From Alphaproteobacteria bacterium (GTDB taxonomy: Bacteria; Pseudomonadota; Alphaproteobacteria; Bin95): a DNA stretch of 64,000 nt. The first letter of the stretch is position 1; each line of letters starts with the position of its first letter. A program made the position numbers and the translations under genes. Shown here one piece after another: positions 20,920 to 58,504 of the stretch. Under the pieces are notes generated by a model. It searched no databases. It was not told the origin of the DNA and was given only the letters and a program-made list of their open reading frames with translations. The stretch spans positions 928,001 to 992,000 of the forward strand of contig OZ219786.1 of NCBI GenBank assembly GCA_964291285.2. The letters are read 5' to 3'.

Positions 20920-20979
20920 GGCGTTCCTCCCCTATCACTCCGGCCGGACCTTACTCTATCACGCTCTCAGCAACCAAGC

Positions 20980-21840
20980 ATGACGATGCCCGAACTCCAG
21001 GGCCGCCTCGACCGGGCGGCCCGGCGCCATGAGACGCCCTGCGGCGACGGCCATATGGTCTGGCGCGAATGGGGCGCCGGGCGCACCGTGCTGCTGCTGC
21101 ACGGCTCCTTCGGCGCCTGGACGCACTGGCTGCGCAATATCGAGGCGCTGGCGGCGCATTTCCGGGTGCTGGCCTGCGACCTGCCGGGCATGGGCGAGAG
21201 CGACCTGCCGCCGATGCCGTTCGATGCGGGCAGCCTCGCGGATATCCTGACGGAAGGACTGGAGCAACTCGCGCCGGAGCCGTTCCATCTTGTCGGCTTT
21301 TCCTTCGGCGGCATCGTCGGCGGCCATGTGGCGGTTCGCACCATGCCGCGCGTGATGAGCTACACCGCCATCGGCTCGAACGCGCTCGGCCTACCGATGG
21401 CCGCCAGGGCGCCGCTGCGCAAGCCCAACAGGACAATGAGCGAGGTGGAAATCCTCGATCTCCACCGCCACAATCTCGGCCTCCAGATGTTCGGCGACCC
21501 CGCGAGGATCGACGCCACAGCACTTACAGTCCAGAACGCCAATACGCGCCGGGCGCGCATCCGCTCCGGCAAGATTCCCGCCGGGGACAGCCTCGCCCGG
21601 CGGCTGCGCGAGATGGCTGCCGCCGGCCTGCCGATCCAGGGCATCTGGGGCGAGCGCGACGCCACGGCCGGCGACCTGCTTCATACACGGCGCGACCTGT
21701 TCCGGGCCGTGCAGCCCGGCTGCCCCTTCCATACCGTTCCCGGCGCCGGCCACTGGGCCGCGTTCGAGGCGCCGGACGAAGTGAACCGAATCCTGATCGA
21801 CAGCCTGCCCGCCATGGAGGTCCCCGCGTGCACGCCCTAG
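20980..21840 (+). CDS. Alpha/beta hydrolase
   Basis: LLHGSFG, DLPGMGES, nucleophile elbow GFSFG, GAGHW. Confidence 0.85.
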   Translation: MTMPELQGRLDRAARRHETPCGDGHMVWREWGAGRTVLLLHGSFGAWTHWLRNIEALAAHFRVLACDLPGMGESDLPPMPFDAGSLADILTEGLEQLAPEPFHLVGFSFGGIVGGHVAVRTMPRVMSYTAIGSNALGLPMAARAPLRKPNRTMSEVEILDLHRHNLGLQMFGDPARIDATALTVQNANTRRARIRSGKIPAGDSLARRLREMAAAGLPIQGIWGERDATAGDLLHTRRDLFRAVQPGCPFHTVPGAGHWAAFEAPDEVNRILIDSLPAMEVPACTP

Positions 21841-22496
21841 AAGCCATAGCCACCCGGCGGTCCGTCCGCGCCTTCAGGCCGGACCCGGTGCCGCTGGAAA
21901 TCGTCCACGAGATTCTGGAGGTTTCGGCCCGCGCGCCCTCCGGCACCAACATGCAGCCCTGGAAGGCGCGGGTCGTGACCGGCGCCGCGCGCGAGCGGCT
22001 GACCCGGGCCGCGCTCGCCGCCGGCGCAAACGGCGCGGCGCTGAAGGCGGAGTACAAATACTATCCCGACCGGTTTCCCGAGCCTTACCTCTCCCGCCGC
22101 CGCAAGGTCGGCTGGGACCTCTACGGCCTGCTCGGCATCCAGCGCGGCGAGACCGACAAGATGCGCGCCCAGCACGCCCGCAACCAGATGTTCTTCGATG
22201 CGCCGGTCGGCATCATCTTCAGCGTGGACCGCGTGCTGGAGATCGGAAGCTGGCTCGATTACGGCATGTTCCTGGAGAATGTCATGGTGGCGGCGCGCGC
22301 CTTCGGCCTGCACAGCTGCCCGCAGGTCGCCTGGACGCCGTACCACGAGGTCGTGCGCGAAGTGCTCGGCATGCCGGAGGACGAGGTGGTCGTCTGCGGC
22401 ATGGCGCTCGGCTACGAGGACGAAGAAGCCGTCGAGAACAGCCTGCGCACCGAACGCGCCCCGCTATCCGACTGGGTCTCCTTCCACGAGGAGTGA
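21828..22496 (+). CDS. Nitroreductase family protein
   Basis: GTG start after GGAGG; RRSVRAF, APSGTNMQPW, FFDAP, GMALGY. Confidence 0.9.
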   Translation: MHALEAIATRRSVRAFRPDPVPLEIVHEILEVSARAPSGTNMQPWKARVVTGAARERLTRAALAAGANGAALKAEYKYYPDRFPEPYLSRRRKVGWDLYGLLGIQRGETDKMRAQHARNQMFFDAPVGIIFSVDRVLEIGSWLDYGMFLENVMVAARAFGLHSCPQVAWTPYHEVVREVLGMPEDEVVVCGMALGYEDEEAVENSLRTERAPLSDWVSFHEE

Positions 22497-22518
22497 CGGC
22501 GCGCCGCAGTCAGGACGG

Positions 22519-22700
22519 CCTGTTATCCGGGAAGGTTGCGCATTGACGGCCAAGCAATACGACCTCGCCAAGGCGCTTTCCGAACTGCTGTCCCGCCGCC
22601 GGGCAGGCGAGTTCATCACAGCGGAAGAAATGGACGCCCGGCTGAACAGTATGATCGCCGACAAGAAACGCGCCCGTGGCGTTTCCTCGGTCGGAACGGA
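22519..22700 (+). pseudogene. Remnant of a ParD-like antitoxin, possibly with the first codons of ParE
   Basis: PVIREG...ALSELLSRRRAGEFITAEEMDARLNSMIADKKRARGV with no start codon; overlapping GTG GCG TTT at 22676 aborts at once. Confidence 0.45.
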
Positions 22701-22711
22701 AGCCGGTCCAG

Positions 22712-23470
22712 CTACCGCAGCCCCCCTGTCACGAAGATCGTGTCGGCGGTGAGGTAGCTGGCGCCGTCGGAGCAGGCGAACAGCACCGTCTCGGCGATCT
22801 CCTCGGGCTGGGCCATCCGGCCTATCGGCATCTGCTCGGCATAGGCCTGGAGCACCTCGGACGGCGTGTTGTCGTGGAACGGCGTGTCCACGAGCCCCGG
22901 CGAGATCGACAGGCAGCGCACGTTCCGGCTGGCGAACTCCCGGCCGATACCGAGCGTCATGGTGTGGACCGCGCCCTTGGACGAGGCGTAGTGGACCGAA
23001 TTGCCGGCTCCGCCGATCCTGGCGGCCACGCTGGCGATATTGACGATCACGCCGCCGCCCTTCTCCAGCATGTGCGGGAGGATGGCCTGCGCGCCGTTGA
23101 AGGTGCCGCGGACATTGAGGGCGTAGGTGCGCTCCCAGAGGTCCTCGGTGATCTCCAGGAAGGGCTTCCGGGCGAGCGCCGCACCCGCGGCGTTCAACTC
23201 GAAATCCACCCGTCCGAAATCCGAGACGGCCTGGGCAACGGCTGCATCGACTTCGGCCCGGACGGTCACGTCGCAGGCAACGAATGTCGCCTTCGCGCCG
23301 ACCTGGATGACCTGGTTGGCCGTGCGCTCGGCGGCCTCCGGGTCGATGTCGGCGCAGACCACGTTCGACCCTTCGCGCGCGAACACCAGGGCGGTGGCGC
23401 GGCCGATGCCGCTGCCGGCGCCGGTAATCAGGATGGTCTTGTCCTTGAAATAGTCCGGGTCTCTCGGCAT
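22712..23470 (-). CDS. Short-chain dehydrogenase/reductase
   Basis: TGAGSGIG, YASSK, PGLVDT. Confidence 0.92.
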   Translation of the reverse strand: MPRDPDYFKDKTILITGAGSGIGRATALVFAREGSNVVCADIDPEAAERTANQVIQVGAKATFVACDVTVRAEVDAAVAQAVSDFGRVDFELNAAGAALARKPFLEITEDLWERTYALNVRGTFNGAQAILPHMLEKGGGVIVNIASVAARIGGAGNSVHYASSKGAVHTMTLGIGREFASRNVRCLSISPGLVDTPFHDNTPSEVLQAYAEQMPIGRMAQPEEIAETVLFACSDGASYLTADTIFVTGGLR

Positions 23471-43895: not shown

Positions 43896-44084
43896 ATGGC
43901 GGCCGGAAAATCCGACCCGGTGATTGCCGAACTCCGGGCCGTCAAGGACCCCTGCGCGGCGGAATTCGACTTCGATATCGACGCGATTTGCGACCATCTG
44001 GTTTCTGCAGAGAAAACTTCCGGACAGACTTAGGTCCCTTATCTTCCGCGCCGTGTCCTGGTGGAAGCGCCGCACGGCGAGTGA
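43896..44084 (+). pseudogene. Small antitoxin-like protein with a probable premature TAG at 44031
   Basis: MAAGKSDPVIAELRAVKD...FDFDIDAI...SGQT[TAG]VPYLPRR resembles the small DP(I/V)xxE(L/V)R...SGRxYV proteins often found beside PIN toxins (recalled, not searched). Confidence 0.4.
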
Positions 44085-44251
44085 TCGTGTCCGGGACGGC
44101 CCCGGTGAAGTCGAACAAAGCGTGGCCTTGACCGGCATTTGGCGGGGTTTCCCGATCGGTATTTGGCGCGGCCGGTGACCGGGGCCGGGGCGGGAGGCAG
44201 TCCCCCTCCAAAGTCGCAAAGAATGAAAAAAATCTAATGATTTTGACTTTT

Positions 44252-44293
44252 GTTCGTGTTTTGATCTTGACATCTGGCGGATTGTGATATGAT
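44252..44293 (+). promoter_or_regulatory. Promoter-like motif of element copy A with a degenerate LexA box
   Basis: GTTC-N7-GATC (44252-44266) abutting TTGACA (44267) and TG-A-TATGAT (44285-44293). Confidence 0.5.
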
Positions 44294-44525
44294 GGTCCCC
44301 GGGGAAGCGGATCCGGAGCCGCGTCCCCGGGTGCCGCGCGGCCGAGCGGCGCTATTTCTGAAAACCCGTGAGAAGCCGACGGGAGACGTGCGCCCTCTGC
44401 CTCGCGCGCGCAATCAGGCGCGCGAACCGCGCCGGCGCCGACACGCGCCCGGGCAGGCGCGGGCGCCCGCGCAGGATACGCGCGGAAAAGGGACCCGCTC
44501 CCGGTCGGAGCAAGGAGGAACGATG
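44281..44525 (+). repeat. Conserved structured leader, copy A (candidate ncRNA or cis element)
   Basis: Collinear conserved blocks shared with 56481-56746(-), including 38 identical nt at 44407-44444. Confidence 0.85.
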
Positions 44526-44540
44526 ACCGCAAAGCGCAAC

Positions 44541-44646
44541 CGTCACCCCGGCCGGAGCGGAGCGGAGAGCCGGGGTCCATCCTCCGCCCTCTCTACCGGG
44601 CTGCAACGGTCAGGGATGGGCCCCGGCTCCGGGGCCGGGGCGACGG
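44541..44646 (+). repeat. REP/BIME-like palindromic element, family 1 copy 2
   Basis: CGTCACCCCGG...CCGGGGTCCAT...GATGGGCCCCGG...CCGGGGCGACGG. Confidence 0.72.
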
Positions 44647-44731
44647 TGAACGCAAGACACAGAAGGAGACCGAAGAGTGGATGACTTCATGCCGGAAACG
44701 GCTACAGCATATAAACCCTGCGCATGGAAAA

Positions 44732-44801
44732 CATGACACTTCATGACATGTTGCGCAGTGTCCTGCGGGGCCCGCATGACAAAACATGACATCTCATGAC
44801 A
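44732..44801 (+). repeat. CATGACA direct-repeat array (2+3 copies, 10-bp period)
   Basis: CATGACA at 44732, 44742, 44775, 44785, 44795. Confidence 0.9.
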
Positions 44802-44849
44802 TCGGCCGGGGAGGCGCGGCGCGTCCGCATTGCGGTCCTGCCGCTTTGT

Positions 44850-45881
44850 TCAGCGGTCGTCGGGCCAGGTGTCGGCGAGGCGGTAGCCGCGCGGCCAGGG
44901 GTCGTCGGGATCGACCATGATCTGGCGCGTGCCGGTGATCCAGGCGCGGCCGGCGAGCGAGGGCAGGATGGCCGGGCGGCCGCCCACCGTGGTCTCGCCC
45001 TCGATCAGGCAGTCGAAACGGGAATCGATCAGCGAGACGCCCACAAAGCTGTCACCCGCGCGGAGAACGCCCCTGGCGTGCAGCGTGGCGAGCCGGGCGG
45101 AGCAGCCGGTGCCGCAGGGCGAGCGGTCGATCTTGCCGGGGCGGATGGCGACCGCATTGCGGCCGTGAGGGATGCCGCCGCGGGTTTCGAGCGGGGCGGC
45201 GAACTGGCAGAAGGAGAGGTGCGCCCAGTCCGCCTGCTCGGGATGGCGGAAGCCGATCTGTTCGTTTGCGGCGCTGACGATGCGCATGCCGGTGACGGCG
45301 AGGTCGCGCGCCTCGTCGGGCCGGAGCACGAAGCCGAGCGCGGCCGCGTCCACGATGGCGTAGCTGTCGCCGCCATAGGCGGTATCGACCCGGAGCGTGC
45401 CGAAGCCCTCGACTTCGAGCGGCGCGTCGAGCCGGTCGGCGAAGGACGGGACATTGCGGATGCGCACCCGCTCGGCCTTGCCGTCCCGGCAGGCGGCGAC
45501 CGCCTCGACCAGCCCGCCCGGCGCCTCCAGCAGGAAGCGGGTCTCCGGTTCCTCCATCGCCACGATGCCGGTTTCCAGAGCCACGGTCGCGACGCACATC
45601 GCGTTGGAGCCGGACATGGGCGGCGTGTCCTCCGGTTCCATGACGATGAAGCCCATCGCCGCGGCCGGGTCCTTTGCCGGCACGAGCAGGTTCACATGGC
45701 GGAAAACGCCGCCGCGCGGCTCGTTCAGCACCACGTCGCGCAGCCAGCCGTCCCGCTCGATGAAGTTCCTCTGCTCCCAGAGCGTCGCCCCCGGCGGCGG
45801 CGCCACCCCGCCCACGATCACGTCCCCCACCTCGCCCTCGGCATGGCAGCCGACGACATGGATCAGCTGCGTCGTCCGCAT
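44850..45881 (-). CDS. Proline racemase family protein (Ser/Cys catalytic pair)
   Basis: [31 protein letters not shown]. Confidence 0.9.
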
Positions 45882-45905
45882 GGTTCAGCGCGAGGCCCGG
45901 CCGGC

Positions 45906-47075
45906 CTATCCACCCGTTCCCGCGAACAGCGCCGGGTCGGGCGATTCGAGCAGGCGCTTCAGCCGCGAGAGGAAGCGCCCGGCGGGGGCGCCGTCGAGGG
46001 CTCGGTGGTCGAAGGTGACGACGAAGGTGGCGATGTCGCGGATCGCGACCTCATTGCCGGCCACGGCAGGCATGCGCCGCATCCGGCCGACGCCGAGAAT
46101 GGCGCATTGCGGCGGGTTGAGCACCGGCGTGAACCAGTCCACGCCGAGCGCGGCGAGGTTGGTGACCGTGAAGGTGGCGCCCTCGAAGTCCGCCGGGGCG
46201 AGCTTGCGGGACTTTGCCCTTGCCGCGAGGTCCGCCGCGGCGTGCGCGATGCCGCCGAGGTCCAGCCTGCCGGCGTCGCGCAGCACCGGCACCACGAGCC
46301 CGTCCTCGACATCCACGGCCATGCCGAGATTGATCTCCCGGTAGCGGTGGATCGCCCCGTCGACGAGGGCCGCGTTGAGCGCCGGGTTCGCCTCCAGCGC
46401 GGCGGCGGCGGCCTTCAGCACGATGTCGTTGAGCGCCGGCACGATGCCGTAGGCCGCGCGCCATTCGCTGCGGTTGGCGTTGCGGAAGGCCCGCATGGCG
46501 GTCATGTCAATATCGAGGCCTTCGGTCACCTGCGGCGCGCCGGTCCAGTGCGCGCTGAGGCGCTCGGCCGTGACCCGGCGGATGCCTTCGAGCGGCACCA
46601 CGTCATGCGCGGGCTCGCCCGAGGGCTTCTCTTCCAGCGGCGGGGCGTCACCCGAGTCGACGGCGCGCTGCACGTCCTCCTTGGTGACGCGCCCGCCGGG
46701 TCCGGTGCCCTCCAGCCGGTCGGCGTCCACGCCGTGCCGTTCCGCGAGGCGCCGCGCGACGGGCGTGACGCGCTGTTCGTCCGACACGGCCGCCGGCGCC
46801 GCCGCCGTCTCGTCCGTCCTGTCCGGCAGGTCCTCGCCCGCGTCGCCGATCCAGGCGAGCGTGGCGCCCACCGGGTATTCCCGGTCCGCCTCCGCGTCGA
46901 TGCGCAGCAGCACGCCGCCGGCCGGCGCCTCGACATCGACCGTCGCCTTGTCGGTCTCGACGGAGTAGAGCGGCGCGCCCTGTTCGACCGGAGCGCCTTC
47001 GGCCGCATACCATTCCACGATCCTGCCGCGCTCCATGGTGTGGCCGAGCGCGGCGAGCCTGAGGCGGACCGCCAT
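45906..47075 (-). CDS. 2-oxoacid dehydrogenase E2 (dihydrolipoamide acyltransferase)
   Basis: Lipoyl ETDKA, E3-binding GTGPGGRVTKEDV, catalytic DHRALDG. Confidence 0.92.
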   Translation of the reverse strand: MAVRLRLAALGHTMERGRIVEWYAAEGAPVEQGAPLYSVETDKATVDVEAPAGGVLLRIDAEADREYPVGATLAWIGDAGEDLPDRTDETAAAPAAVSDEQRVTPVARRLAERHGVDADRLEGTGPGGRVTKEDVQRAVDSGDAPPLEEKPSGEPAHDVVPLEGIRRVTAERLSAHWTGAPQVTEGLDIDMTAMRAFRNANRSEWRAAYGIVPALNDIVLKAAAAALEANPALNAALVDGAIHRYREINLGMAVDVEDGLVVPVLRDAGRLDLGGIAHAAADLAARAKSRKLAPADFEGATFTVTNLAALGVDWFTPVLNPPQCAILGVGRMRRMPAVAGNEVAIRDIATFVVTFDHRALDGAPAGRFLSRLKRLLESPDPALFAGTGG

Positions 47076-48046
47076 CAGGCCATGACCTTCCGCACGGCTG
47101 CCGAGACGTCCCCGACATCGGGAACCGTGACGTTGACCAGTTCCTCGGCGAAGGGCATGGGCACATGCGGGCTGCCGACCCGCACGATGGGTGCGCGCAG
47201 GTCGTGAAAGCACTGCTCGGCGAGCGCGGCCGCGATCTCCGCGCCGGTGCCGGCGAAGGAGGAATCCATCTCGCAAACCACGGCGCGCCCGGTGCGGCGC
47301 ACGGATTCGCAGATCGTCTCCATGTCGAGCGGGGCCAGCGTCCTCGGGTCCACGACCTCGATGTCGTAGCCCTCGTCCTCCAGCGCGATGCCCGCCTCCA
47401 GCGCGCGGGGCACCATGCCGCCGATGGCGACCACGGTCGCGTCCTCGCCTTCCCGCTTGATGTCCGCCTTGCCGAAGGGGATGACATAGTCCTCCTCCGG
47501 CACCCCGCCCTCGCTGACATAGAGCGCCTTGTATTCGAAGAACGCCACGGGGTCGGGGCTGCGGATCGCGGTCTTCATCAGCCCCTTGGCGTCATAGGGC
47601 GTGCTCGGCGCCGCCACCTGGAGGCCCGGCACGTGCATGAACCAGGATTCCATGATCTGCGAATGCTGGGCCGCGACCAGCCGGGCGGGCCCGCAGGGCA
47701 GGCGGATGACGATGGGCACGCTCGCCTGCCCGCCGGTCATGTAGCGCATCTTGGCGGCCTGGTTGACGACCTCGTCCATCGCGCAGGTGATGAAATCGAC
47801 ATACATGATCTCGACCACCGGGCGCATGCCGGCGAGCGCGGCGCCGACCCCGAGGCCGACAATGCCCGCCTCCGCAATCGGCGTCTCGAAGATCCGGTCC
47901 GGCCACTTGTCCACGATGCCCTGGGTGACGGTATAGGGGCCGCCATGAGCGATCACGTCCTCGCCGATGACGAACACGCTCTCGTCGCGGGCCATTTCCT
48001 CGTGCAGCGCTTCCCGGAGCGCGTCGCGGAGCGCGATGGTCCTCAT
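47075..48046 (-). CDS. 2-oxoacid/acetoin dehydrogenase E1 beta subunit
   Basis: GEDV, ETPIAEAG, NQAAKMRYM, QHSQ, DPRTLAPLD. Confidence 0.93.
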   Translation of the reverse strand: MRTIALRDALREALHEEMARDESVFVIGEDVIAHGGPYTVTQGIVDKWPDRIFETPIAEAGIVGLGVGAALAGMRPVVEIMYVDFITCAMDEVVNQAAKMRYMTGGQASVPIVIRLPCGPARLVAAQHSQIMESWFMHVPGLQVAAPSTPYDAKGLMKTAIRSPDPVAFFEYKALYVSEGGVPEEDYVIPFGKADIKREGEDATVVAIGGMVPRALEAGIALEDEGYDIEVVDPRTLAPLDMETICESVRRTGRAVVCEMDSSFAGTGAEIAAALAEQCFHDLRAPIVRVGSPHVPMPFAEELVNVTVPDVGDVSAAVRKVMA

Positions 48047-49026
48047 GCCGAAACCCTCCATTCCGTATCCAGCACGTCGGTCAGCACGTCCTCCGGGTCC
48101 GGCAGCGGGCTCTCCTCGGCATAGGCCACGGACTTCGCGACCTCCGCCGTCACTTCCGCCTGGATCGCCTCGTCCTCATCGTCGCCCAGCCACTGGCGCT
48201 CCTTCATCCACGCGCTGAACAGCTTGATCGGGTCGCGGTTCTCGCGCCAGTCATCGACTTCCTCGCGCGAGCGGTATTCCTCCATGTCGCCGAGGCTGTG
48301 CCCGTAGAAGCGGTAGGTCCGCGCCTCGATCAGCGTCGGGCCCTCGCCGCGCCGGGCGCGCTCCACCGCCTCCCCGGCGGCGTCATAGACCGCCTCAAGG
48401 TCCTGCCCGTCCACCGAGACGCCGGGGATGGCGTAGGAGGCCGCCATGTCGGCCACCGAGTCCACCACGGCGACATTCCTGCGCGGCACCCATTGCTGGT
48501 AGCCGTTGTTTTCGCAGACATAGACGACCGGCAGCTTCCAGAGCGAGCCGAACAGGAGGCCCTCATGGAAGGGGCCGCGCGCTGCCGCCCCGTCGCCGAA
48601 GAAGACAACCGACACCTGGTCGCTCCTGCGGATCCTGCTCGCAAGCGCCGTGCCGGTGCCGGGGCCGATGCCGCCGGCGACGATGCCGTTCGCGCCCAGT
48701 ATGTTGCGGGAGAAGTCGGCGATATGCATGGAGCCGCCCTTGGCGCGGCAACTGCCGGTCGCGCGCCCGAACAGCTCCGCCATCATGCGGTCCATCGGCG
48801 CGCCCTTGGCGAGGCAGTGCCCGTGGCTGCGGTGGGTTCCCAGCACATAGTCGTCGTCGCGCAGATGCGCGCACACCGCGACCGCAATGGCTTCCTCGCC
48901 GCAATAGGTGTGGAGCGTGCCCTTGACGGAGCCGAGGCTGGTCTGGCGCAGCGCTTCTTCCTCGAAGAGGCGGATTCGCCACATGTCCGTGTAGATCCTG
49001 CGGCTGAGCTCGGCATTGAGAGTCAT
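48043..49026 (-). CDS. 2-oxoacid/acetoin dehydrogenase E1 alpha subunit (TPP-dependent)
   Basis: THRSHGH, KGGSMH, FFGDGA...ENN, TYRFYGHS. Confidence 0.93.
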   Translation of the reverse strand: MTLNAELSRRIYTDMWRIRLFEEEALRQTSLGSVKGTLHTYCGEEAIAVAVCAHLRDDDYVLGTHRSHGHCLAKGAPMDRMMAELFGRATGSCRAKGGSMHIADFSRNILGANGIVAGGIGPGTGTALASRIRRSDQVSVVFFGDGAAARGPFHEGLLFGSLWKLPVVYVCENNGYQQWVPRRNVAVVDSVADMAASYAIPGVSVDGQDLEAVYDAAGEAVERARRGEGPTLIEARTYRFYGHSLGDMEEYRSREEVDDWRENRDPIKLFSAWMKERQWLGDDEDEAIQAEVTAEVAKSVAYAEESPLPDPEDVLTDVLDTEWRVSA

Positions 49027-49201
49027 GGCGCCTCCGGTTCGCTGTTCGGGCCTGTCGCCGCCTATATTCACGGAGACGCGCCCGGATGTCATCAGGAGTT
49101 GCGGCGGGTCGCAGACAGGCCCGGCTGCCGAAACGCAACCGGTTCAACCGGACGGGCCGCGGCCCGATGCCCGACGCCGGTTCCCGGAACCCCGGAAGGC
49201 G

Positions 49202-50287
49202 CTACTCCGCCGCCTCCGCCCCGAACGCCGGCGAGAAGTGGGGGGCGACTTCGCGGGCGAAGCGGGCCATGACTTCCCGTTGCAGGTCCTTGGGCATGCC
49301 GGGCGTGGCGGCGGAAACGAGCGCGTAGTCAAAGCCGAGCGCCGCATAGCCCCTGAGGCGCTCCACGGCGGTTTCGGGCGAGCCGACAAGGTTCATCTCG
49401 CAATAAGGGCCGAGCTCGTCCGGGTCCGCCATCTTGCGCAGATTGGCGAACATGCGGGAGAACTGCTGGTATTCTTCGATATTCTCCCAGGGGTTCGCGT
49501 CCGCTTCGTAATGGTCCGCCTGGATGGTGAAATAGGGCGGGAAATAGCGCCGGGCGAGCTTCAGGGCCTCGTCGTCGCTGTCGGCGATCAGCATCTTGAT
49601 CGAGATGGCCTTGGTCCGATCCGCCCTGGCGGGCGCGCTCTCGTTCCAGGTCCCGAGAATCCTCTCCAGAAGACGGGCCGGGAAGGTGGAGAGGCAGAGC
49701 GGCGGCAGCTCCAGCCCCGCCATCACGCCGGCGCTCTGCGGGCTGCCGATGGCGCCGTAGAACTTCACCGGCTTGCCCACCGGCTCCGGGCGCAGGCGGA
49801 CCGGGCGCGGCACCTTGTAGTAGGCCCCGTCATGGATGAATTCCTGCCCCGAGAGGCCCTTGCGGATGATGTCCAGCGATTCCGCGAACCGGCCCCGCGC
49901 TTCCGGCATGGACACCCCGTAAGCGTCGTATTCCGACTTCGCCGTGCCGCGCCCGAGGCCCAGATGCAGCGTGCCGCGCGTCAGCGAGTTCAGCATCGCG
50001 ATCTCTTCGGCAATCCGCACCGGATGGTACCAGGGCAGCACGAGCACCGAGGTGCCGAGCCCGATATCCGGGCAGAGCGCCGCCACATGCGCCATGAACA
50101 GCAGCGGGCTCGGCGTCGGGTAGTAGTCCGAGAAATGGTGCTCCAGCATCCAGACCGATTCGTAGCCCAGCGTTTCGGCGAGCTTCACGTCCTCGATCAC
50201 CTCGTCGTAGAGCACCTTGTCGGACTTGCGGACATCGGTGGAGGGCGCGGTCTGCACACCGAAGGTCATGGCTCGGACCGTCGTCAT
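49202..50287 (-). CDS. Luciferase-like (LLM) flavin-dependent monooxygenase
   Basis: WMLEHHF, PSPLL, LPWYHPVRIAEE, LGLGRG. Confidence 0.9.
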   Translation of the reverse strand: MTTVRAMTFGVQTAPSTDVRKSDKVLYDEVIEDVKLAETLGYESVWMLEHHFSDYYPTPSPLLFMAHVAALCPDIGLGTSVLVLPWYHPVRIAEEIAMLNSLTRGTLHLGLGRGTAKSEYDAYGVSMPEARGRFAESLDIIRKGLSGQEFIHDGAYYKVPRPVRLRPEPVGKPVKFYGAIGSPQSAGVMAGLELPPLCLSTFPARLLERILGTWNESAPARADRTKAISIKMLIADSDDEALKLARRYFPPYFTIQADHYEADANPWENIEEYQQFSRMFANLRKMADPDELGPYCEMNLVGSPETAVERLRGYAALGFDYALVSAATPGMPKDLQREVMARFAREVAPHFSPAFGAEAAE

Positions 50288-50417
50288 GGGCGCGGCTTCC
50301 TTTGCTTGCGGGCCTGGAGAGCGGAGGCTACCCGCCAAGCGTCACGGTCGGCAAGCGCAAGCGGCGCTGCCGAACCGACAGCGCCGCCCGGACTGCGTCA
50401 GGGGCGCGAATTCTCCG

Positions 50418-52080
<1,663 letters not shown>

Positions 52081-52126
52081 TGCCGTTTCCGAACTCCTGC
52101 AGAGGACGACCGTTCCTCCAGAAAGA

Positions 52127-52142
52127 CGCAAATTGCGTGCCG
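52127..52142 (-). promoter_or_regulatory. Sigma54 (-24/-12) promoter for amtB-glnK
   Basis: Minus strand CGGCACGCAATTTGCG = GG-N10-GC, matching TGGCACG-N4-TTGC, 46 bp upstream of amtB. Confidence 0.8.
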
Positions 52143-52170
52143 TAAGGCGGCAATGTGCCGGGAGAACCGT

Positions 52171-52575
52171 CTATCCTCCCTTGCGCGGCCGCTCGGCGAC
52201 CGGCCCGCCGGCGTCCTTCCAGGCCGTGAAGCCGCCTTCGATATGGGCGACGGGCTCCAGGCCCATATCCTGCAGCGTTTCCGTCGCCAGGGCCGAGCGC
52301 CAGCCGCTGGCGCAGTAGAAGACGAACTTCTTGCCGCTCGCGAACACATCGCGGTGATAGGGGCTCGCCGGATCGACCCAGAATTCCAGCATGCCGCGCG
52401 GCGCATGCAGCGCGCCCGGGATCATGCCGTCGCGGTCGAGCTCGCGCACGTCGCGGATATCGACGATCTGCACGGACTCGCTGTCCTGGAGCGCCAGAGC
52501 CTCGGCGGCAGGGATTTCCTCGATCTTTGCGCGCGCGGCGGCGAGGAGTTGGTCGATGCCCTTGGTGATGGCCAT
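52171..52575 (-). CDS. Rhodanese-like domain protein
   Basis: VDIRDVRE, RGMLEFWVDP, YCASGWRS, GGFTAW. Confidence 0.9.
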   Translation of the reverse strand: MAITKGIDQLLAAARAKIEEIPAAEALALQDSESVQIVDIRDVRELDRDGMIPGALHAPRGMLEFWVDPASPYHRDVFASGKKFVFYCASGWRSALATETLQDMGLEPVAHIEGGFTAWKDAGGPVAERPRKGG

Positions 52576-52604
52576 GGGATACGGTCGCTTTCCTGGTTTG
52601 CGGG

Positions 52605-53663
52605 TCAGACGATGCCGACGGGGTTGGCGGGGGAGCCGACCGCGCCCGGCAGGCGCAGCGGCTGGCAGGTGGTGAAAAAGCGTGTCCGGCCGAGCTCGCG
52701 CAGGCGGCGGGCGAGATCGCCCAGATACCAGAGTTCGCCGAGCGGCACGCCGAGCTTGAACAGGCAGTGCTGGTGCAGCGGCGAGTGGGCGTAGCGCTCT
52801 CCCGGCGCCGGCCGGGCAGGCGATTGCTCGACGGCGTAGTTGTCGGCGAAGAGCGCCGCGACACCCGAATCCGTGATCCATTGCAGCAGCCGGTCGTCGC
52901 GCCCGTCGAGCGCCGCGCAGCTGTTTGCCAGGCGCGGGCCGTCCGGCTCCCTCTCCATCTCCAGCAGCAGGTCCGCGAAACCGGTATAGAAGAAGGCGAG
53001 GTCGCCTTCCTTGACGGCGGCCCCGGTTTCCTCCAGCACGCGCATCAGGTCTTCATAGGTGACGAGGTGGCGCCCCTCGCGCCCGAAGAAGCGTTCCAGG
53101 TCGATCATCACGCCCCGGCCCACCACGCCCTTCTCCGCGAAGGTCTCGATGCCGAGCCTGCGCGCGCCCATCGCTTCCGGGCGCGGGGTCTGCGAGCCGT
53201 CAGCGTGGTAGTCCACCGGCCCGATGATGTCCTCGCCGCCCCTGAAGCCGTTGTAGAAGCGGATTTCCGGGATGCCGTCGCCGTCCGCATCGAACATCTG
53301 CCCCATATGGCAGAAGGCGTCCCACTGCGAGGAATATTGCAGCGTCATCTGCACCCGGTCGTCGCAGCCGACATCGATATGGCGCGGGTCTTCGAGCTGG
53401 AGCGGAAAGTTGTAGCGCGGCGCGCCGTCGGGCCCCCGGGTCGGCTCCAGCACCGGCGGATGGCGGCGCGGATTGAGGACGTTGCGGCCCGGATAGTCCA
53501 GCGGCAGGGACAGGCAATAGACTTCGCCCAGGCGGATTTCCTCGCGCGCTGCCAGCACCCGCTCCGGCGTCAGCAGGTTCAACCGGCCGAGCTGGTCATC
53601 CGGCCCCCAGTCGCCCCAGGTGGACCCCTCCGGACGCCGTTTCCAGCGCGCATTTTCCCTCAT
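52605..53663 (-). CDS. Cyclase family metal-dependent hydrolase
   Basis: WGPDDQLGRLN, SQWDAFCH, GRGVMID, LGELW, GSPANP. Confidence 0.88.
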   Translation of the reverse strand: MRENARWKRRPEGSTWGDWGPDDQLGRLNLLTPERVLAAREEIRLGEVYCLSLPLDYPGRNVLNPRRHPPVLEPTRGPDGAPRYNFPLQLEDPRHIDVGCDDRVQMTLQYSSQWDAFCHMGQMFDADGDGIPEIRFYNGFRGGEDIIGPVDYHADGSQTPRPEAMGARRLGIETFAEKGVVGRGVMIDLERFFGREGRHLVTYEDLMRVLEETGAAVKEGDLAFFYTGFADLLLEMEREPDGPRLANSCAALDGRDDRLLQWITDSGVAALFADNYAVEQSPARPAPGERYAHSPLHQHCLFKLGVPLGELWYLGDLARRLRELGRTRFFTTCQPLRLPGAVGSPANPVGIV

Positions 53664-53740
53664 GCGTCCCTTTCTCCCGCTTGCCGCCGGCGCAGTTGCG
53701 GCTACGGTAACGGAACCCGAATGCATAAGGAAACGCCGAA

Positions 53741-54517
53741 ATGAGCAATCCCTTCAGCCTCGAAGGCCGCAATGTCCTGGTCACGGGCGCCGCACAGGGC
53801 GTCGGCCGGGAGGTCGCGCGCACCGTCGTCTCGATGGGCGGCCGCGTCGCTGTCGTCGATCTCAACAAGGAAGGCATCGACAGCCTCGTCGCCGAGCTCG
53901 GCGAGGACAGGGCGATGGGCTTCCACGGCTCGGTCACCGAACAGGACCTGGCGGACGGCATCGTCGAGGCGGTGGTGGGCGAGTGGGGCTCGATCACCGG
54001 CCTTGTCAACAATGCCGGCATCGTCCGTGCCGCCATGATCCACAAGATGAGCCGCGAATACTGGGACGAGGTCATCAATGTGAACCTCACCGCCGTCTAT
54101 CTGGTGCTGCAGTCGGTCGGCAGGCGGATGATCGCGCAGTCGGAGACCGGCGAGTTCGGCGTCTGCCCCGGCCAGATCGTCAATGTGTCCTCGATCGCCG
54201 GCACGGCCGGCACCATCGGCCAGATCAACTACGGCGCGGCCAAGGCCGGCGTGCTCGGCATCACCATGAGCGCGGCGCGCGAATGGGCGCGCTACGGCAT
54301 CTGCGTGAATTCGGTGGCGTTCGGCACTGTCGTCACCCCGATGACCGAAGTGATCCGGGGCCCGAAATTCGGCGCCCAGACGATGGCCCGCATTCCGCTC
54401 GGCCGCTATGCCGAGACCAGCGATGTGGCGCCGGCCGTCTGCTTCCTGCTCGCGCCGGGGGCCAACTACATCACCGGCAAGAACCTCACCATCGACGGCG
54501 GCATGACCGCGATGTGA
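53741..54517 (+). CDS. SDR, FabG-like 3-oxoacyl reductase
   Basis: TGAAQGVG, NNAG, GQINYGAAKAG. Confidence 0.9.
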   Translation: MSNPFSLEGRNVLVTGAAQGVGREVARTVVSMGGRVAVVDLNKEGIDSLVAELGEDRAMGFHGSVTEQDLADGIVEAVVGEWGSITGLVNNAGIVRAAMIHKMSREYWDEVINVNLTAVYLVLQSVGRRMIAQSETGEFGVCPGQIVNVSSIAGTAGTIGQINYGAAKAGVLGITMSAAREWARYGICVNSVAFGTVVTPMTEVIRGPKFGAQTMARIPLGRYAETSDVAPAVCFLLAPGANYITGKNLTIDGGMTAM

Positions 54518-54526
54518 GGCAGGGGC

Positions 54527-55414
54527 GTGACCGCTCTTTCGACGGGGCCCTGGCGGAGCTTCCTGTTCGCCCCGGCCAACCATGCGCGCATGGCGGAGAA
54601 GGTGTTCCGGGCGGGCGCCGACGCGGCGATCCTGGACCTTGAGGACGCGGTCGCGGTCGCGGAGAAGCCGGCCGCTCGCGCCGACGCGGTCGCCGCTCTC
54701 AGGCGGCCGCGGCCTTGCAAAGGCTTCGTGCGCGTCAACGCCGCCGAGACGGAGTGGTGCTTCGGGGACATGGAGGCGATCGTCGGGCCGTGGCTCGACG
54801 GCATCGTGCTGCCGAAGCTCGAGAGCGCGGCCATGCTCCGGACCATCGACTGGACGCTGGCCCAGCTCGAGCGCAAGGCCGGGCTGGAACCGGGCAGCAT
54901 CGACCTCATGCCCATCGTCGAGACCGGCCTCGGCATCTCCAACCTGAAGGAGATCGCCGCCTGCCGCTCGCGCCTCGGGCGGCTCTGCTTCGGGGCCGGC
55001 GACTACACGCTCGATGTCGGGATGCGCTGGTCGCTGGACGAGACGGAGCTGGCGCATGCGCGCGCGGCGATGGTGGTGGAATCGCGCGCGGGCGGGCTGG
55101 AGCCGCCGGTCGATACGGTGTTCATCGAGTTGCGCGAGACGGAGGCCTTCGCGGCCTCGGCGCGCCGCGCGCTCGCGCTCGGCTTCCAGGGCAAGCTCTG
55201 CATCCATCCGAGCCAGGTGGGGCCGGTCAACGACGCCTTCTCGCCGACGGAGGAGGAGACGACACGCGCGCGGCGCATCGTCGCGGCGTTCGACGAAGCC
55301 GAGGCCGCCGGCTCCGCCTCCATCCAGGTGGACGGCTATTTCGTCGATTACCCCATCGTCGAAAAGGCCCGCCGCACCCTGGCCCTGGCGGACCGCATAG
55401 CGGAGCGGGGCTGA
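54527..55414 (+). CDS. CitE/malyl-CoA lyase family CoA-ester lyase
   Basis: LDLEDAV, FVRVN, LPK, IVET, GKLCIHPSQ. Confidence 0.9.
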   Translation: MTALSTGPWRSFLFAPANHARMAEKVFRAGADAAILDLEDAVAVAEKPAARADAVAALRRPRPCKGFVRVNAAETEWCFGDMEAIVGPWLDGIVLPKLESAAMLRTIDWTLAQLERKAGLEPGSIDLMPIVETGLGISNLKEIAACRSRLGRLCFGAGDYTLDVGMRWSLDETELAHARAAMVVESRAGGLEPPVDTVFIELRETEAFAASARRALALGFQGKLCIHPSQVGPVNDAFSPTEEETTRARRIVAAFDEAEAAGSASIQVDGYFVDYPIVEKARRTLALADRIAERG

Positions 55415-55421
55415 GGGCGGG

Positions 55422-55451
55422 TATGTGCCGGGGTCCATGGACCGGCGCATA
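55422..55451. terminator. Hairpin between convergent genes
   Basis: TATGTGCC-GG-GGTCCATGGACC-GGCGCATA fold-back with no strong U tract. Confidence 0.35.
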
Positions 55452-55470
55452 GGGGCCACTCCACGCGCCG

Positions 55471-55497
55471 TGTCATGGAATGTCATGATCTGTCATG
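55471..55497 (-). repeat. CATGACA direct-repeat array (3 copies, 10-bp period)
   Basis: Plus strand TGTCATG at 55471, 55481, 55491; overlaps the stop codon of the TerS-like ORF. Confidence 0.9.
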
Positions 55498-56483
55498 TCC
55501 GGGGGCGAATTCGACGCTGTCGAACCGGTCGCCGCCCGCCGGTCCGGGTCGCCGGTCCAGTCCTCTTCCTCATCGCCGTCGCCGTCCCGGTCGCCGCTCC
55601 AGTCGTTGTCTTCGTCTTCGCCCCGCTCTTCCCGTTCGAGGCGGCTCTGCCTGCGCTCCTCGACCTGCTCCGGGGCCCAGGGGTCGTAGATGTCGTCGTA
55701 TCCGTTGCGGCGCTGGTAGAGCCAGTCATGTTCGGCGCCGTCGGCCCGGTCGTCGTCGGTGCTGTCCTCGTGGCCGGGCGCGGCGGCGGCGGCCCACGGG
55801 CAGTCTTCGTAGGTCTCCTCCGGCGGGTCGTCGGCCGGCGGCAGGTCGTTTGCCGGCGCGGGCGGGGGGCCGAAGCTCACGGGCAGGCGGGAGCGCTCCT
55901 CGACGGCCGCGGCGAGCCTGCGGGCGGCCTCCTCATGCGCGGCCCCGTCGAAGCCCTCCTGCGCCTCCATCTCCTCCCGTCGCTCGCGGTGGCGGGCGAG
56001 CGCTCGTTCGGCCCGGGCATGGCCGCTGCGCACGGCGTCTGCGAGCGGTCCGGGTTCGGTGCCGGTCTCCTGCGCCTCGCCCGCTTCGATCTCGCCGAAC
56101 TCGTCCTCGTGCGGCAGCGGCCAGAGGCGGGCCCGGTTCGCGCCGGCCGGACTGACAAGCCCGGCGATCTCGGCCTGGAAGCGCAGCACCCGGAGCATCA
56201 TGTAAGCCGAGCCGCTGGCGACGGCGGCGTCCCAGGCCTGCTCCGAGCGGGCGAGCAGGATGCGGGCCTCGTCGCGTTCGGTGCGCTTCCAGGACAGGCG
56301 GATGCGGCGCACGCGCTCGACGATCCAGGGCCGCTCCAGCAGGGCGCATCCGGTCTGTCGTGCGGAGCGCTCGGCATAGCCGGCCTGCCTTGCAGCGTCT
56401 GCGGCATTGCCGGAGGCGGTGTAGTGGCGGCAGAAGGCTTCCTGGCGGGTGGAAAGCGCGACGGCGGGGTCGATGACGGGCAT
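55473..56483 (-). CDS. Orphan terminase-small-subunit-like HTH protein with a long acidic low-complexity tail
   Basis: AAAGGAG RBS; LSTRQEAFCRHYTASGNAADAARQAGYAERSARQTGCALL matches the TerS N-terminal HTH pattern; D/E-rich C-terminal part; no other phage genes nearby. Confidence 0.75.
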   Translation of the reverse strand: MPVIDPAVALSTRQEAFCRHYTASGNAADAARQAGYAERSARQTGCALLERPWIVERVRRIRLSWKRTERDEARILLARSEQAWDAAVASGSAYMMLRVLRFQAEIAGLVSPAGANRARLWPLPHEDEFGEIEAGEAQETGTEPGPLADAVRSGHARAERALARHRERREEMEAQEGFDGAAHEEAARRLAAAVEERSRLPVSFGPPPAPANDLPPADDPPEETYEDCPWAAAAAPGHEDSTDDDRADGAEHDWLYQRRNGYDDIYDPWAPEQVEERRQSRLEREERGEDEDNDWSGDRDGDGDEEEDWTGDPDRRAATGSTASNSPPDMTDHDIP

Positions 56484-56760
56484 GGTGTGCGGCTCCTTTC
56501 GTTCCGCTGGCGTTCGACAGGCAGGCCCGGCGGGGAGCGACCCTTATTCGCGCGTATCCTGCGCGCGCCTGTGCCGGCGCGGGCGGGTGTCGGCGCCGGC
56601 GCGGTTCGCGCGCCTGATTGCGCGGGCGCGAGGCGGGCGCAGGGCACACCTCGCCTGTCGGCTGAATCGGGGTCGTTCCGCACCGGGCCGGCGCGGGCGG
56701 GAAGCGGCTCCGGATGCCTCCTCCCTCGCACCCATCATACCACAATTTCTGAAAATGCAA
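56481..56760 (-). repeat. Conserved structured leader plus promoter-like motif, copy B
   Basis: TTGCAT-N15-TATGAT, then the same blocks as 44281-44525; 38-nt core at 56587-56624. Confidence 0.85.
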
Positions 56761-56869
56761 GCCCCATTATAAGAATTATTACATAAACTTCAGGAACGAC
56801 TTGTTATATGCCTTCATCACCCGCTCTCGCCTCCGGGCAGAGGCGCCGGTGCCTCGTGCGGCCGCAGCC

Positions 56870-57067
56870 TCACTGCCGGAGGTCCCGGCCCGCCCTCCGG
56901 CCGCCGGCGCAGGCGTCTTCCGTCAACAGGCGAGCGTCGCGGCGGTCGCGGTAAATCGCCCCGCCGATGAGTTGCCTATCCCTGAAATCGCGCCGGAGTC
57001 TCCTGTCCTGCGTGTAGAGGAGCCGGACGCCGGTGGCGCGGGCGAGCGCGACGACATGCGGGTCACG
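56870..57067 (-). pseudogene. C-terminal fragment of a PIN-like domain protein
   Basis: Frame not in the ORF list: RDPHVVALARATGVRLLYTQDRRLRRDF...; no in-frame start; truncated where the AT-rich sequence begins. Confidence 0.5.
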
Positions 57068-57295
57068 TGAGTATATATATTTGGAGCATCCTCTGATCCA
57101 TATGGATCGACTGTTTGTCGACGACCAGCCATCGGCTTTGCCTCATTTCGTCGCCTTGGGCCCCAATCCGAGGTGACGGTTGGGATCTACAGACGAGACT
57201 GTTTTAATTCGAACGGCTCATGCTCTAAATTGCGTATCACGTATTCCAAATATCATTAATGATAGTCATGGAGAAAATATTGCCTCAGACCAAAG

Positions 57296-57580
57296 TCAGA
57301 AAACAAAAAAATATCGCCTTCTTCTTCCTTCACCCTGTGCATTTACTGTAGGGTATGCATGATGTTTATCTTGAAAATTCCTGATAAAAATATGCTCCAT
57401 CAGCGTTGGAATTGTATTTCTCCAAGGACGAACAAGACATACAATCATTCGGACACCTGCCAAATATCCATGAACTTTCATAGGAAGTTTGTAACCATAT
57501 AAAACTAGGTAATTTCTTCGCATATCGTCGAGAAACCGATTGCCGAAATCGTTTGTCTTGCCGATGTAAACCACTTCCAT
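57296..57580 (-). CDS. Low-GC GIY-YIG-like nuclease fragment or small ORF
   Basis: VVYIGKTNDFGNRF...MEHIFIRNF...HHAYPTVN; AT-rich islet; first GIY strand missing or frameshifted. Confidence 0.45.
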   Translation of the reverse strand: MEVVYIGKTNDFGNRFLDDMRRNYLVLYGYKLPMKVHGYLAGVRMIVCLVRPWRNTIPTLMEHIFIRNFQDKHHAYPTVNAQGEGRRRRYFFVF

Positions 57581-57706
57581 TATCTCGCCGCAAGAAATCG
57601 AGGTAGTCCACTGGCCGCCCTATCCTTTTGTTCCCCAGCAGAGAACTGCCAACATCGTTTGTGCCTCATTTATATAGCGCAACTCCCGATGACCTGCTTT
57701 CGTGGA

Positions 57707-58504
57707 CTATCCAGCATCCTCATTGTCTACGGCCCACGGCGGCGGGCGCTTTTCGTTGAAGGCGTCTATGCCGGCGCGGGCGGCGGGGGCTCGGAGGAGG
57801 GCGGCTATGGTGTGCGCGGCGTCGTCCAGGGTTTCGTTCACCGGGCGGTCGGAGGCGGAGATGACCAGGCGCTTGGCCTGCGCGACGGCCCCGGGCTCCG
57901 AGCGGCGGACCTGATCGAGCACCCCGGCCAGCGCCGAATCGGCGTCCTCCCGGCTGGCCGCGAGAATGTGGGCGAGGCCGTCGCGGAGCGCGTCGCGGCC
58001 GTCCAGTATGGTGCCGGTCGCGACCAGCCGCCGGGTCCAGCCCTCGCCCATGCGCCGCACGATGTGGGGGATGACCTGGGCCGGGATGAAGCCGGAGCGC
58101 GCCTCGGGCAGGCCGATCTTCGCGTCCTCGGTGACGATCACGACATCGGAGCAGCAGGCCATGCCGAGGCCGCCGCCCGTGCAGGCGCCCTCGACCACCG
58201 CGATGACGGCCTGCGGCAGCGCGTTCAGCAACTCCAGAACATGGCCCATCCTGCGATAGACGGGAAAGAGCGGGTCCGGATCCGCGGCCGGCGGGACGTC
58301 TCCCAGCATCGACATGTCGCCGCCGGCCGAGAACTGCCCGCCCTCGCCCCGCAGCACGACGGCGCGCGCGTCCGACGCCCCGGCTTCCCGAAAGGCGGCC
58401 AGCAGCGCGTCCATTGTCTCCTGGGTCAGCGCGTTGCGGCGCCCGGGCCGCGTCAGCCGGACATGAAGGGCGATTCCCTCCCGCTCGACCCGGACCGGGC
58501 TCAC
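57707..58504 (-). CDS. Enoyl-CoA hydratase/isomerase family protein
   Basis: RRNALT, FSAGGD, GACTGGG, GLPEARSG. Confidence 0.9.
   Translation of the reverse strand: MSPVRVEREGIALHVRLTRPGRRNALTQETMDALLAAFREAGASDARAVVLRGEGGQFSAGGDMSMLGDVPPAADPDPLFPVYRRMGHVLELLNALPQAVIAVVEGACTGGGLGMACCSDVVIVTEDAKIGLPEARSGFIPAQVIPHIVRRMGEGWTRRLVATGTILDGRDALRDGLAHILAASREDADSALAGVLDQVRRSEPGAVAQAKRLVISASDRPVNETLDDAAHTIAALLRAPAARAGIDAFNEKRPPPWAVDNEDAG

Follow-up and report, generated by a model that had tools for sequence, protein, structure and literature searches.

Two loci in a 64,000-nucleotide stretch of an alphaproteobacterial genome, referred to as copies A (plus strand) and B (minus strand), raise the question of what kind of DNA they represent. 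The stretch, called the window below, corresponds to G000:C2:928001-992000 (positions given without a contig name refer to the window), and its own genome, G000, comprises 6.13 Mb in five contigs with 68% G+C. Both loci, when read directly, display the same parts in the same order, i.e., an AT-rich 5' end, a promoter-like motif, a leader, a ribosome-binding site (RBS) and a terminal array of CATGACA heptamers, as had been described in an initial annotation made from the sequence alone. In copy B the open reading frame (ORF) between RBS and array encodes a protein related to the small terminases of phages, and no phage genes are found around A or B. The answer developed here, to which we assign a probability of about 0.5, is that A and B represent a family of small selfish dispersed elements, undescribed so far and restricted to one lineage, in which a terminase-derived protein would bind the terminal arrays.

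Copy Number, Linkage and Phasing

The initial annotation counted two copies, which turned out to be a large undercount. Leader copies were counted using an iterated nhmmer profile of the ~300-nt promoter-like region and leader, which yielded 106 matches in the own genome; these were joined into 99 copies located on all five contigs, and 89 of them span model positions 25-270. This number rules out a simple duplication of two loci. A search of a plasmid collection gave no match. Leader and array also occur together elsewhere than at A and B: a phased array is found at most 1.2 kb downstream, on the same strand, for 85 of 98 leader 3' ends, and 84 of the 113 array clusters in the genome are linked to a leader. 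These clusters most often contain three (43 clusters) or five heptamers (33), followed by four (14), two (14), six (6), seven (2) and eight (1).

The heptamer CATGACA is found 901 times in the genome compared to 312 occurrences expected from base composition. Adjacent heptamers form 252 pairs at a period of 10 bp, where 0.008 are expected, none at a period of 9 and two at a period of 11, so that a chance origin of the phased pairs is excluded. Exact triples number 91, as compared to none for a reversed control. The arrays have a polarity, and each of the five contigs contains some of them.

Element Ends and the Leader

The elements are asymmetric cassettes of ~0.4-1.4 kb with a single ORF behind a strong RBS. 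At the 5' end, the information content of the alignment columns climbs around TTGTTC(A/C)TG, which lies ~10-15 nt 5' of the AT-rich stretch, and it is at background level by ~15 nt upstream of model position 1. At the 3' end, alignments of the most similar element pairs (96-97% identity over 1.05-1.3 kb) end 0-6 nt past the last heptamer, and ten aligned copies have only ~11 bases in common past the array (CNNCGCNRGGR). The array is therefore truly terminal. It consists of two to eight heptamers, one DNA turn apart, and a frequent layout is a pair, a ~25-nt spacer and then a triple. The two ends are unlike each other in the ten copies that were compared, and of the inverted sequence pairs, 17 in B and 8 in A, none connects the two termini, i.e., terminal inverted repeats are absent. 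All cargo ORFs stop at a TGA inside a heptamer, which yields C-termini of the type ..HDKT, ..HDIP or ..HDIS, and with three heptamers at period 10, each of the three reading frames encounters a TGA. An additional conserved, GC-rich unit of ~170 nt between two arrays ("module Y", e.g., G000:C1:228056-228281) is found at about ten to twelve loci; it has its own AAGGAGG and a 12-codon ORF (MPCERPERRPAP) whose stop codon falls in the following array.

The ~250-nt leader contains three blocks that are at least 90% identical across 81 paralogs, and the promoter-like motif is conserved in the same set. Minimum-free-energy z-scores of the leader are -2.1 (A) and -2.3. RNAalifold applied to 20 leaders predicted 31 base pairs, of which only three display a compensatory change, and a covariation script applied to the 81 paralogs returned 13 pairs, none of them compensatory, which is the same result as for the antisense strand. 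Rfam gave no leader match at the gathering score in the whole window, and a relaxed threshold produced a chance-level match to DnaX (E 3.4). Strong identity combined with little or no covariation points to recognition of the leader sequence itself. Counted over assembled contigs only, the leader core has the highest summed depth in the one RNA library and likewise in the three DNA or unclassified ("unknown") libraries, and these data therefore provide no signal of expression, transcript ends or circular forms. The stretch is present in one sponge metagenome run.

Cargo Types

As initially proposed, a fixed 5' module and fixed 3' phased heptamers enclose a variable cargo; this organization holds across the 99 leader copies, for which three types of cargo gene are seen, none of them encoding a transposase. 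The first is the terminase-like protein of 329-336 residues, with ten intact copies and additional truncated remnants; all 12 Terminase_2 matches of the genome fall within these elements. The second (class ii) is a 192-218-residue protein (MTATDPRP...), of which four to five copies are intact and numerous others are remnants. BLASTP detects no resemblance between it and the terminase-like protein, it has no Pfam match, its best PHROG match has an E-value of 0.015 and its Atlas scores are 0.85 or below. The class-ii gene goes together with the type of leader found in copy A, and thus A is a decayed member of this sister subfamily, carrying a remnant of an unrelated gene, rather than the cargo-less form of B that it was first taken for. 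The third is an isochorismatase-family gene (PF00857, E 3.4e-25) that lies between a leader and a triple array at G000:C3:1747460-1748580 (minus strand); no other copy was observed to carry an ordinary enzyme gene. The rest comprises short ORFs of 31-41 codons and other remnants. Dozens of decayed remnants retain both leader and array, and the copies thus fall into a pattern like that of autonomous and non-autonomous elements.

The Terminase-Like Protein

The 336-residue protein of copy B had initially been called TerS-like, which agrees with the Pfam assignment (Terminase_2, E 1.1e-10), where the match covers residues 11-72 only; PHROG small-terminase families are also matched. A profile built from 16 homologs and compared with the PDB retrieves only small-terminase chains of the SF6/SPP1 type, over residues 7-59 (2cmp, E 1.9e-6; 4zc3; 3zqp). 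The AlphaFold model is confident only for residues ~10-110, where it displays a helix-turn-helix followed by long helices at residues 52-90 and 93-106. The top Foldseek match of the model is the SF6 DNA-binding domain (4zc3/2cmp; target-normalized TM score 0.82, 40% identity), followed by the full-length SPP1-like small terminase 3zqq (probability 0.97-0.98 over 127-133 columns, E 0.08-0.18, with a high rmsd). The N-terminal helix-turn-helix is hence homologous to that of the SF6/SPP1 G1P small terminase. The C-terminal half is acidic and variable, is modeled with low confidence and is predicted to be disordered.

Among the ten intact paralogs (45 pairs) the ratio of nonsynonymous to synonymous divergence (dN/dS) is 0.33, with a dS of 0.16, and the ratio is 0.21 in the N-terminal 135 residues. 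The gene is therefore maintained as a protein, i.e., it is under purifying selection. A prediction of a four-copy complex of residues 1-135 gave a score of 0.14 and a mark of 0.42, values that are counted neither for nor against the model. Relatives of the protein are labeled "terminase small subunit" in public sources (312 clusters at E≤1e-5 among 8000 candidates scored), a name that would wrongly suggest the presence of prophages.

Gene-Array Coupling in Relatives

A tblastn search of the protein against genome contigs returned 118 relatives, from which 80 loci were kept. All 80 are found in metagenome-assembled genomes that bear the label Alphaproteobacteria or Rhodospirillaceae, a single genome often having many copies, and the leader precedes the gene at 59 of the loci. 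Within the genus, the number of exact triple arrays per genome is 129, 98, 91 (own genome), 85, 67, 61, 33, 7, 0, 0 and 0, and it tracks genome size, i.e., 0 at 3.4-3.8 Mb and 61-129 at 4.3-6.1 Mb; the three genomes without arrays are the smallest and the most divergent. No triple array was found in 20 genomes of two sister genera or in 300 other genomes of the class, and the protein profile at E≤1e-12 has matches in 6 of 301 genomes of the class. Among viral contigs, 48 loci of IMG/VR were retrieved, none of which encodes a full-length relative of the terminase-like protein: 46 match within the helix-turn-helix (residues 8-79 or shorter), and the other two matches run to residues 84 and 140.

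The pairing of gene and array is retained over considerable distances. In relatives at 41-46% protein identity, the SARQTG helix is unchanged and the gene is followed by 10-bp-phased C[ACG]TGAC[AG]. At least two CATGAC are seen near the 3' end of the gene at 16 of 23 inspected loci, and four of the others are cut off or mis-called. A distant alphaproteobacterial lineage of a different family (G287) harbors three homologous genes (G287:C1:9000-11300, 20700-23000 and 453694-457122), a smaller sister family, each with its own promoter-like region and a short leader. The helix reads NARGQATRLL in these proteins, and all three genes are followed, immediately 3' of the stop codon, by GCC(C/G)ACA at a period of 10 bp. 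In this genome as a whole, 16 phased GCCSACA pairs are found at ~12 loci, compared to one for a control. The arrays are G-poor and A/C-rich in both G287 and the own genome, and the G287 heptamer contains neither TGA nor ATG; the 10-bp phasing is kept. A changed helix together with a changed heptamer at the same phasing is what is predicted for a cognate pair of protein and site.

In rings of SF6-type small terminases, adjacent helix-turn-helix motifs are placed about one turn of B-DNA apart, according to structural work (PMC4737164). The 10-bp spacing of the heptamers fits this geometry. Because gene and array remain paired down to 41-46% identity and the heptamer shifts with the recognition helix, indirect support is obtained for a protein that may bind its own phased repeats.

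Signs of Spread, Insertions and Rearrangements

Identity between paralogs reaches 97-98%, compared to 89-94% for orthologous flanks in the nearest relatives, which reads as recent spread of the family. Presence and absence of individual elements differ among relatives. The flanks of B lie only 25-34 bp apart, i.e., the site is empty, in 7 of 16 relatives; another relative (G007) has a decayed copy at this site, and in two others (G006 and G010) it is occupied by ~1.84 kb of different DNA. G013 and G003 lack the element at C3:978064-978495, and the convergent genes directly adjoin each other in these two relatives. The own genome contains no repeat that is interrupted and also has an intact copy.

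Synteny blocks common to the 16 relatives start and stop at elements (G000:C3:970000-989900 and G000:C2:862000-881000), and in single-contig relatives the neighboring blocks lie far apart or are inverted; two further 19-kb synteny queries gave only blocks that end at elements. These observations suggest rearrangement between element copies. The gene context of 72 elements is convergent for 20, divergent for 20 and tandem for 32, counts that are too rough to reveal an orientation preference because the crude gene caller covered ~70%.

The elements are also targets of insertion sequences (ISs). Five leader copies are split at one and the same model position, 164/165 (G000 C1:640191-641314; C1:858924-860046; C2:876821-877943; C3:1276529-1277652; C2:1145192-1148468). 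Four of these inserts are a 1.12-kb IS110-family element (DEDD_Tnp_IS110 and Transposase_20) and the fifth is a 3.3-kb composite; the IS110-family element is evidently a case of site-specific landing in the leader. Eight leader copies end at model positions 272-274, beside an IS of ~2 kb in either orientation that encodes a 599-residue DDE_Tnp_1 transposase (e.g., G000:C1:257693-260000). At 7 or more of the 113 arrays (e.g., G000:C2:1255100-1258000 and G000:C2:730500-733000), an IS3-family element (OrfA with HTH_Tnp_1; OrfB with HTH_21 and rve) is found in either orientation, with its TGGAGTGGGCCCC end placed exactly 5-6 nt past the last heptamer. Three separate IS families have thus inserted into the elements and do not form them. 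Separately, the tail of the element (CGC.RGGR) resembles the end of the IS3-family element.

As stated in the initial annotation, no integrase or transposase was found with the elements, nor are there terminal inverted repeats. Domain searches of the own genome gave no match to the Y1 transposase (Y1_Tnp, PF01797; RAYT type), for which the control was positive in 6 of 14 genomes, or to the Y2 transposase (PF04986), for which the control likewise matched in no genome, so that the Y2 result is uninformative. The inability to assign the elements to a named family also stands, and no account of an element of this kind turned up in literature searches.

Anatomy of Copies A and B

In copy A the 5' boundary zone is located at 44213-44227 (plus strand), with ..GCAAAGAATG before and AAAAAAATC.. 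after the boundary, the point at which similarity begins in an alignment of 18 A-type copies. The promoter-like region (44267-44293) consists of TTGACA (44267-44272), a 15-nt spacer and TATGAT (44288-44293) preceded by TGn, i.e., it is of the extended -10 type. The leader extends over 44294-44511 and contains ATCCGGAGCCGC, AGCCGACGGGAGACGTGCGCCCT, the 38-nt core (44407-44444) and CGCGCAGGATACGCGCG. It is followed by a segment (44512-44731) that begins with AAGGAGG and an ATG at 44523 (RBS AAGGAG plus ATG, 44512-44525) and continues as the decayed remnant of a class-ii ORF (start MTAK..). The short ORF was initially said to be occupied by a repetitive extragenic palindromic (REP) element, and it is indeed interrupted by a nested REP-like palindrome of 103 nt (44542-44644). 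Such palindromes (GTCRCCCCGG...CCGGGGYGAC) amount to 414 half-sites genome-wide, and one nested pair is the one in A. The 3' end of A is formed by a pair of CATGACA at period 10 (44732-44748), which was missing from the initial description, and by the terminal triple (44775-44801), which together with a tail of ~11 nt (TCGGCCGGGGAGG) occupies 44775-44812.

Copy B is read on the minus strand. The boundary zone at its 5' end (56790-56803) has ..GTCGTTCCTG on one side and AAGTTTATG.. on the other. The promoter-like region (56734-56760) comprises TTGCAT (56760-56755), 15 nt and TATGAT (56739-56734), again preceded by TGn, and is followed by the leader (56484-56733) with the 38-nt core at 56624-56587. 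An RBS, AAGGAG, is found near 56498-56493 (RBS and ATG span 56498-56481), the gene for the 336-residue protein occupies 55473-56483 and its TGA stop lies inside the terminal triple of CATGACA (55471-55497), which has the exact 10-bp period initially noted for both loci. The 3' tail (CGGCGCGTGGAGTGG.., 55421-55470) accompanies the decayed element that G007 has at the orthologous site, and the empty sites lack it. The sequence TGGAGTGG after the array of B was considered as an IS3 remnant; this possibility is ruled out, as the orthologous copy in G007 has a family-typical CGCCAGGGAG tail at that place.

Common to A and B are, in order, ATCCGGAGCCGC, AGCCGAC..GTG.GCCCT, the identical 38-nt core, CGCGCAGGATACGCGCG..AAGGG and the AAGGAG RBS with its ATG. 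The motif TTGnnn-N15-TATGAT, on which the initial promoter assignment was based, is present in both copies; a consensus promoter scan calls no promoter in 44000-57000, because it requires a spacer of 16-18 nt, and a promoter at these positions is thus something we infer from the sequence.

Both copies reside between convergent host genes, as initially reported: A has an SGL/gluconolactonase-like gene on one side and a proline-racemase-family gene on the other, and the neighbors of B are an HpcH/HpaI aldolase gene and an unnamed ORF on the minus strand. On the upstream side, the claimed "TA-like or nuclease debris" was not recovered, i.e., none of five small upstream ORFs has a Pfam match. At site B, the block that replaces the 25-34-bp intergenic stretch of the seven relatives extends over 55421-57731 and comprises element B, a GC-rich segment (56800-57060) and an AT-rich segment of ~0.67 kb (57060-57730). 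Neither G007 nor the empty sites contain the AT-rich segment; its ORFs have no Pfam match and it looks like a separate foreign insertion.

A Model and Its Alternatives

The combined data may be described by the following model. Some copies would be "autonomous-like" in that their gene product descends from the small terminase of a phage and has a helix-turn-helix, a helical core (residues ~52-106) and an acidic tail. This protein may oligomerize such that successive helix-turn-helix motifs are placed on successive heptamers, and a wrapped nucleoprotein complex would then form at the 3' end of the element. The complex could work in trans on all ~100 copies, including many decayed ones, and would mark the element end for propagation by an enzyme encoded outside the element. 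It may also block transcription of the element from entering neighboring genes.

A number of observations weigh against this model. No mobility enzyme was found for the elements. The inserted block at site B exceeds the element on both sides, and the gain may therefore not be a precise transposition; relatives with empty sites exist, but neither a target-site duplication nor a clean junction can be read at the empty sites of B and C3:978064-978495. Oligomerization and DNA binding of the protein are predictions from sequence and structural models, the Foldseek E-values are weak (0.04-0.18) and model confidence is limited to residues ~10-110. The isolated DNA-binding domain of SF6, the closest relative with a solved structure, is reported to bind DNA weakly and with hardly any preference for sequence (PMC4737164). 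Only two motif classes underlie the co-variation of helix and heptamer, and the homologs in one genome (G027) display no obvious array. Furthermore, the class-ii elements and the isochorismatase cassette bear arrays in the absence of a terminase-like gene, and the model therefore needs action in trans. Finally, the highly conserved leader has no explained part in the model, and evidence from covariation for a conserved RNA fold is weak or absent.

Alternatively, the cassette may be a domesticated or host-tolerated regulatory module, in which a strong promoter would yield an abundant ~250-nt leader RNA or a small protein and the arrays would insulate the neighboring genes, either as a bound roadblock or as a Rho-loading terminator with stops in three frames; the copy number would then stem from an old spread and gene conversion. 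Such a role fits the three nearly invariant leader blocks in 81 paralogs, the cargo ORFs that all stop at an array TGA, the three-frame TGA of the period-10 triple, the G-poor and A/C-rich composition of the arrays in both G287 and the own genome and the position of A and B between convergent genes. We nevertheless regard it as unlikely. The G287 heptamer is phased at 10 bp in spite of having no TGA or ATG, which weakens three-frame stops as a conserved role of the array, and the exact heptamer and its phasing point instead to a sequence-specific DNA binder. In addition, the leader displays no RNA-structure covariation and belongs to no Rfam family, contig-level sequencing data gave no expression signal, and a range of 0-129 copies within one genus is more readily expected from a selfish burst than from a regulon under conservation.

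The homology of the N-terminal domain to the SF6/SPP1 small terminase raises another scenario, in which the arrays are dispersed pac-like sites and the bound protein brings in a large terminase, supplied either by a pac-type phage during infection or by a gene transfer agent. Packaging of host DNA would begin at ~100 starts, and the outcome could be satellite-like hitch-hiking, a transduction platform or an anti-phage decoy. The polarity of the arrays and their presence on all five contigs are in line with this scenario, as is the location of phage pac sites, with direct repeats, in or beside the small-terminase gene (PMC4737164). Packaging steered by a resident helper, as suggested in the initial annotation, receives no support: in the 100%-complete genome the large-terminase families PF03237, PF03354 and PF04466 each have zero matches, with controls working, and a single weak HK97-type capsid-like match (28.9 bits, in a 467-residue open frame, G000:C2:88158-88493) has no terminase beside it. 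The relatives in IMG/VR are, as noted above, limited to the helix-turn-helix at 46 of 48 loci and none is full-length. The C-terminal half of small terminases usually contacts the large subunit, and it is this half that is variable, acidic and predicted to be disordered here. Nor does the scenario explain why decayed copies retain the promoter-like region and the leader. We consider it quite improbable. The same holds for its more specific form, in which a domesticated small terminase is the sole dedicated protein of a new class of mobile or satellite-like elements and the genome becomes a substrate for cutting and packaging initiated by the terminase upon infection by a pac-type phage, a proposal to which we give little credence. 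If it were true, ~100 cognate sites on all replicons would imply transduction across the whole genome or a decoy that diverts packaging and so weakens the phage, and the element would spread in packaged DNA.

An ordinary known repeat, i.e., a miniature inverted-repeat transposable element (MITE), a REP/BIME sequence, an IS end or an old duplication of two loci, would account for an intergenic location, GC-rich hairpins, high copy number and common decayed copies, but this explanation is very unlikely and largely refuted by the 99 copies, the lack of terminal inverted repeats and of a Y1 transposase/RAYT, a cargo that is not a transposase and three IS families that are inserted in the element rather than forming it.

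If the elements are mobile, as in the selfish-element model that we prefer, they would represent DNA that reaches ~100 copies per genome without a recognizable transposase, integrase or inverted ends, and a phage packaging protein would have been re-purposed as the factor that binds the element's end. The elements also shape how genomes evolve in an uncultured group of Alphaproteobacteria, through breaks in synteny, three IS families that home to fixed positions and the link to genome size. The phased heptamers and the compact promoter-leader cassette offer a directly testable system of protein-DNA recognition.

Comparison with Known Systems

Excisionases such as those of phage lambda and mycobacteriophages (Xis) are small helix-turn-helix proteins that bind three or four head-to-tail sites with ~10-bp phasing at the boundary of a mobile element. 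No match to them in sequence or fold was found, no search aimed at one having been made; the present elements differ in having no integrase partner and in encoding a protein of ~330 residues with a helix-turn-helix of the terminase type.

Phage satellites of the phage-inducible chromosomal island (PICI) type carry their own small terminase, together with genes for integration (integrase), regulation, replication and redirection of packaging, in an island of 5-15 kb. Here, the similarity is that of a chromosomal, non-phage element that encodes a small-terminase-like protein and has candidate cognate sites. In contrast to PICIs, the present elements span 0.4-1.4 kb, contain one gene, occur in ~100 copies and have no integrase, replication or capsid-remodeling genes, and the genome harbors no helper large terminase.

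Non-autonomous repeats of the MITE type include Correia elements, REP/BIME sequences with their RAYT and the IS200/IS605-derived PATEs. With these, the family shares small size, intergenic location, ~100 copies and internally decayed copies that keep their ends. It differs from them in that the ends are asymmetric and not inverted repeats, no transposase-encoding parent and no Y1 transposase are found in the genome, and the cassette comprises a promoter-like region, a long leader and an ORF with an RBS. The use of the elements as IS landing sites has an analog in ISPpu9, which inserts in REP sequences (PMC8450116).

Another related system is the small terminase G1P of SPP1/SF6 with its pac site. 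The element differs from this system in that no large terminase or phage gene is found beside it, nor a large terminase elsewhere in the genome, in the presence of ten intact copies and ~100 sites per genome, in the long acidic C-terminal half of the protein, its own promoter-like region and the 250-nt leader, and in that viral contigs of IMG/VR yielded no full-length member of the protein family. It resembles this system in the homologous N-terminal helix-turn-helix, followed by a helical hairpin in the element protein, and in candidate sites that are direct repeats next to or inside the protein's own gene. The spacing of these repeats, moreover, equals the one-turn spacing of the motifs around the small-terminase ring (PMC4737164).

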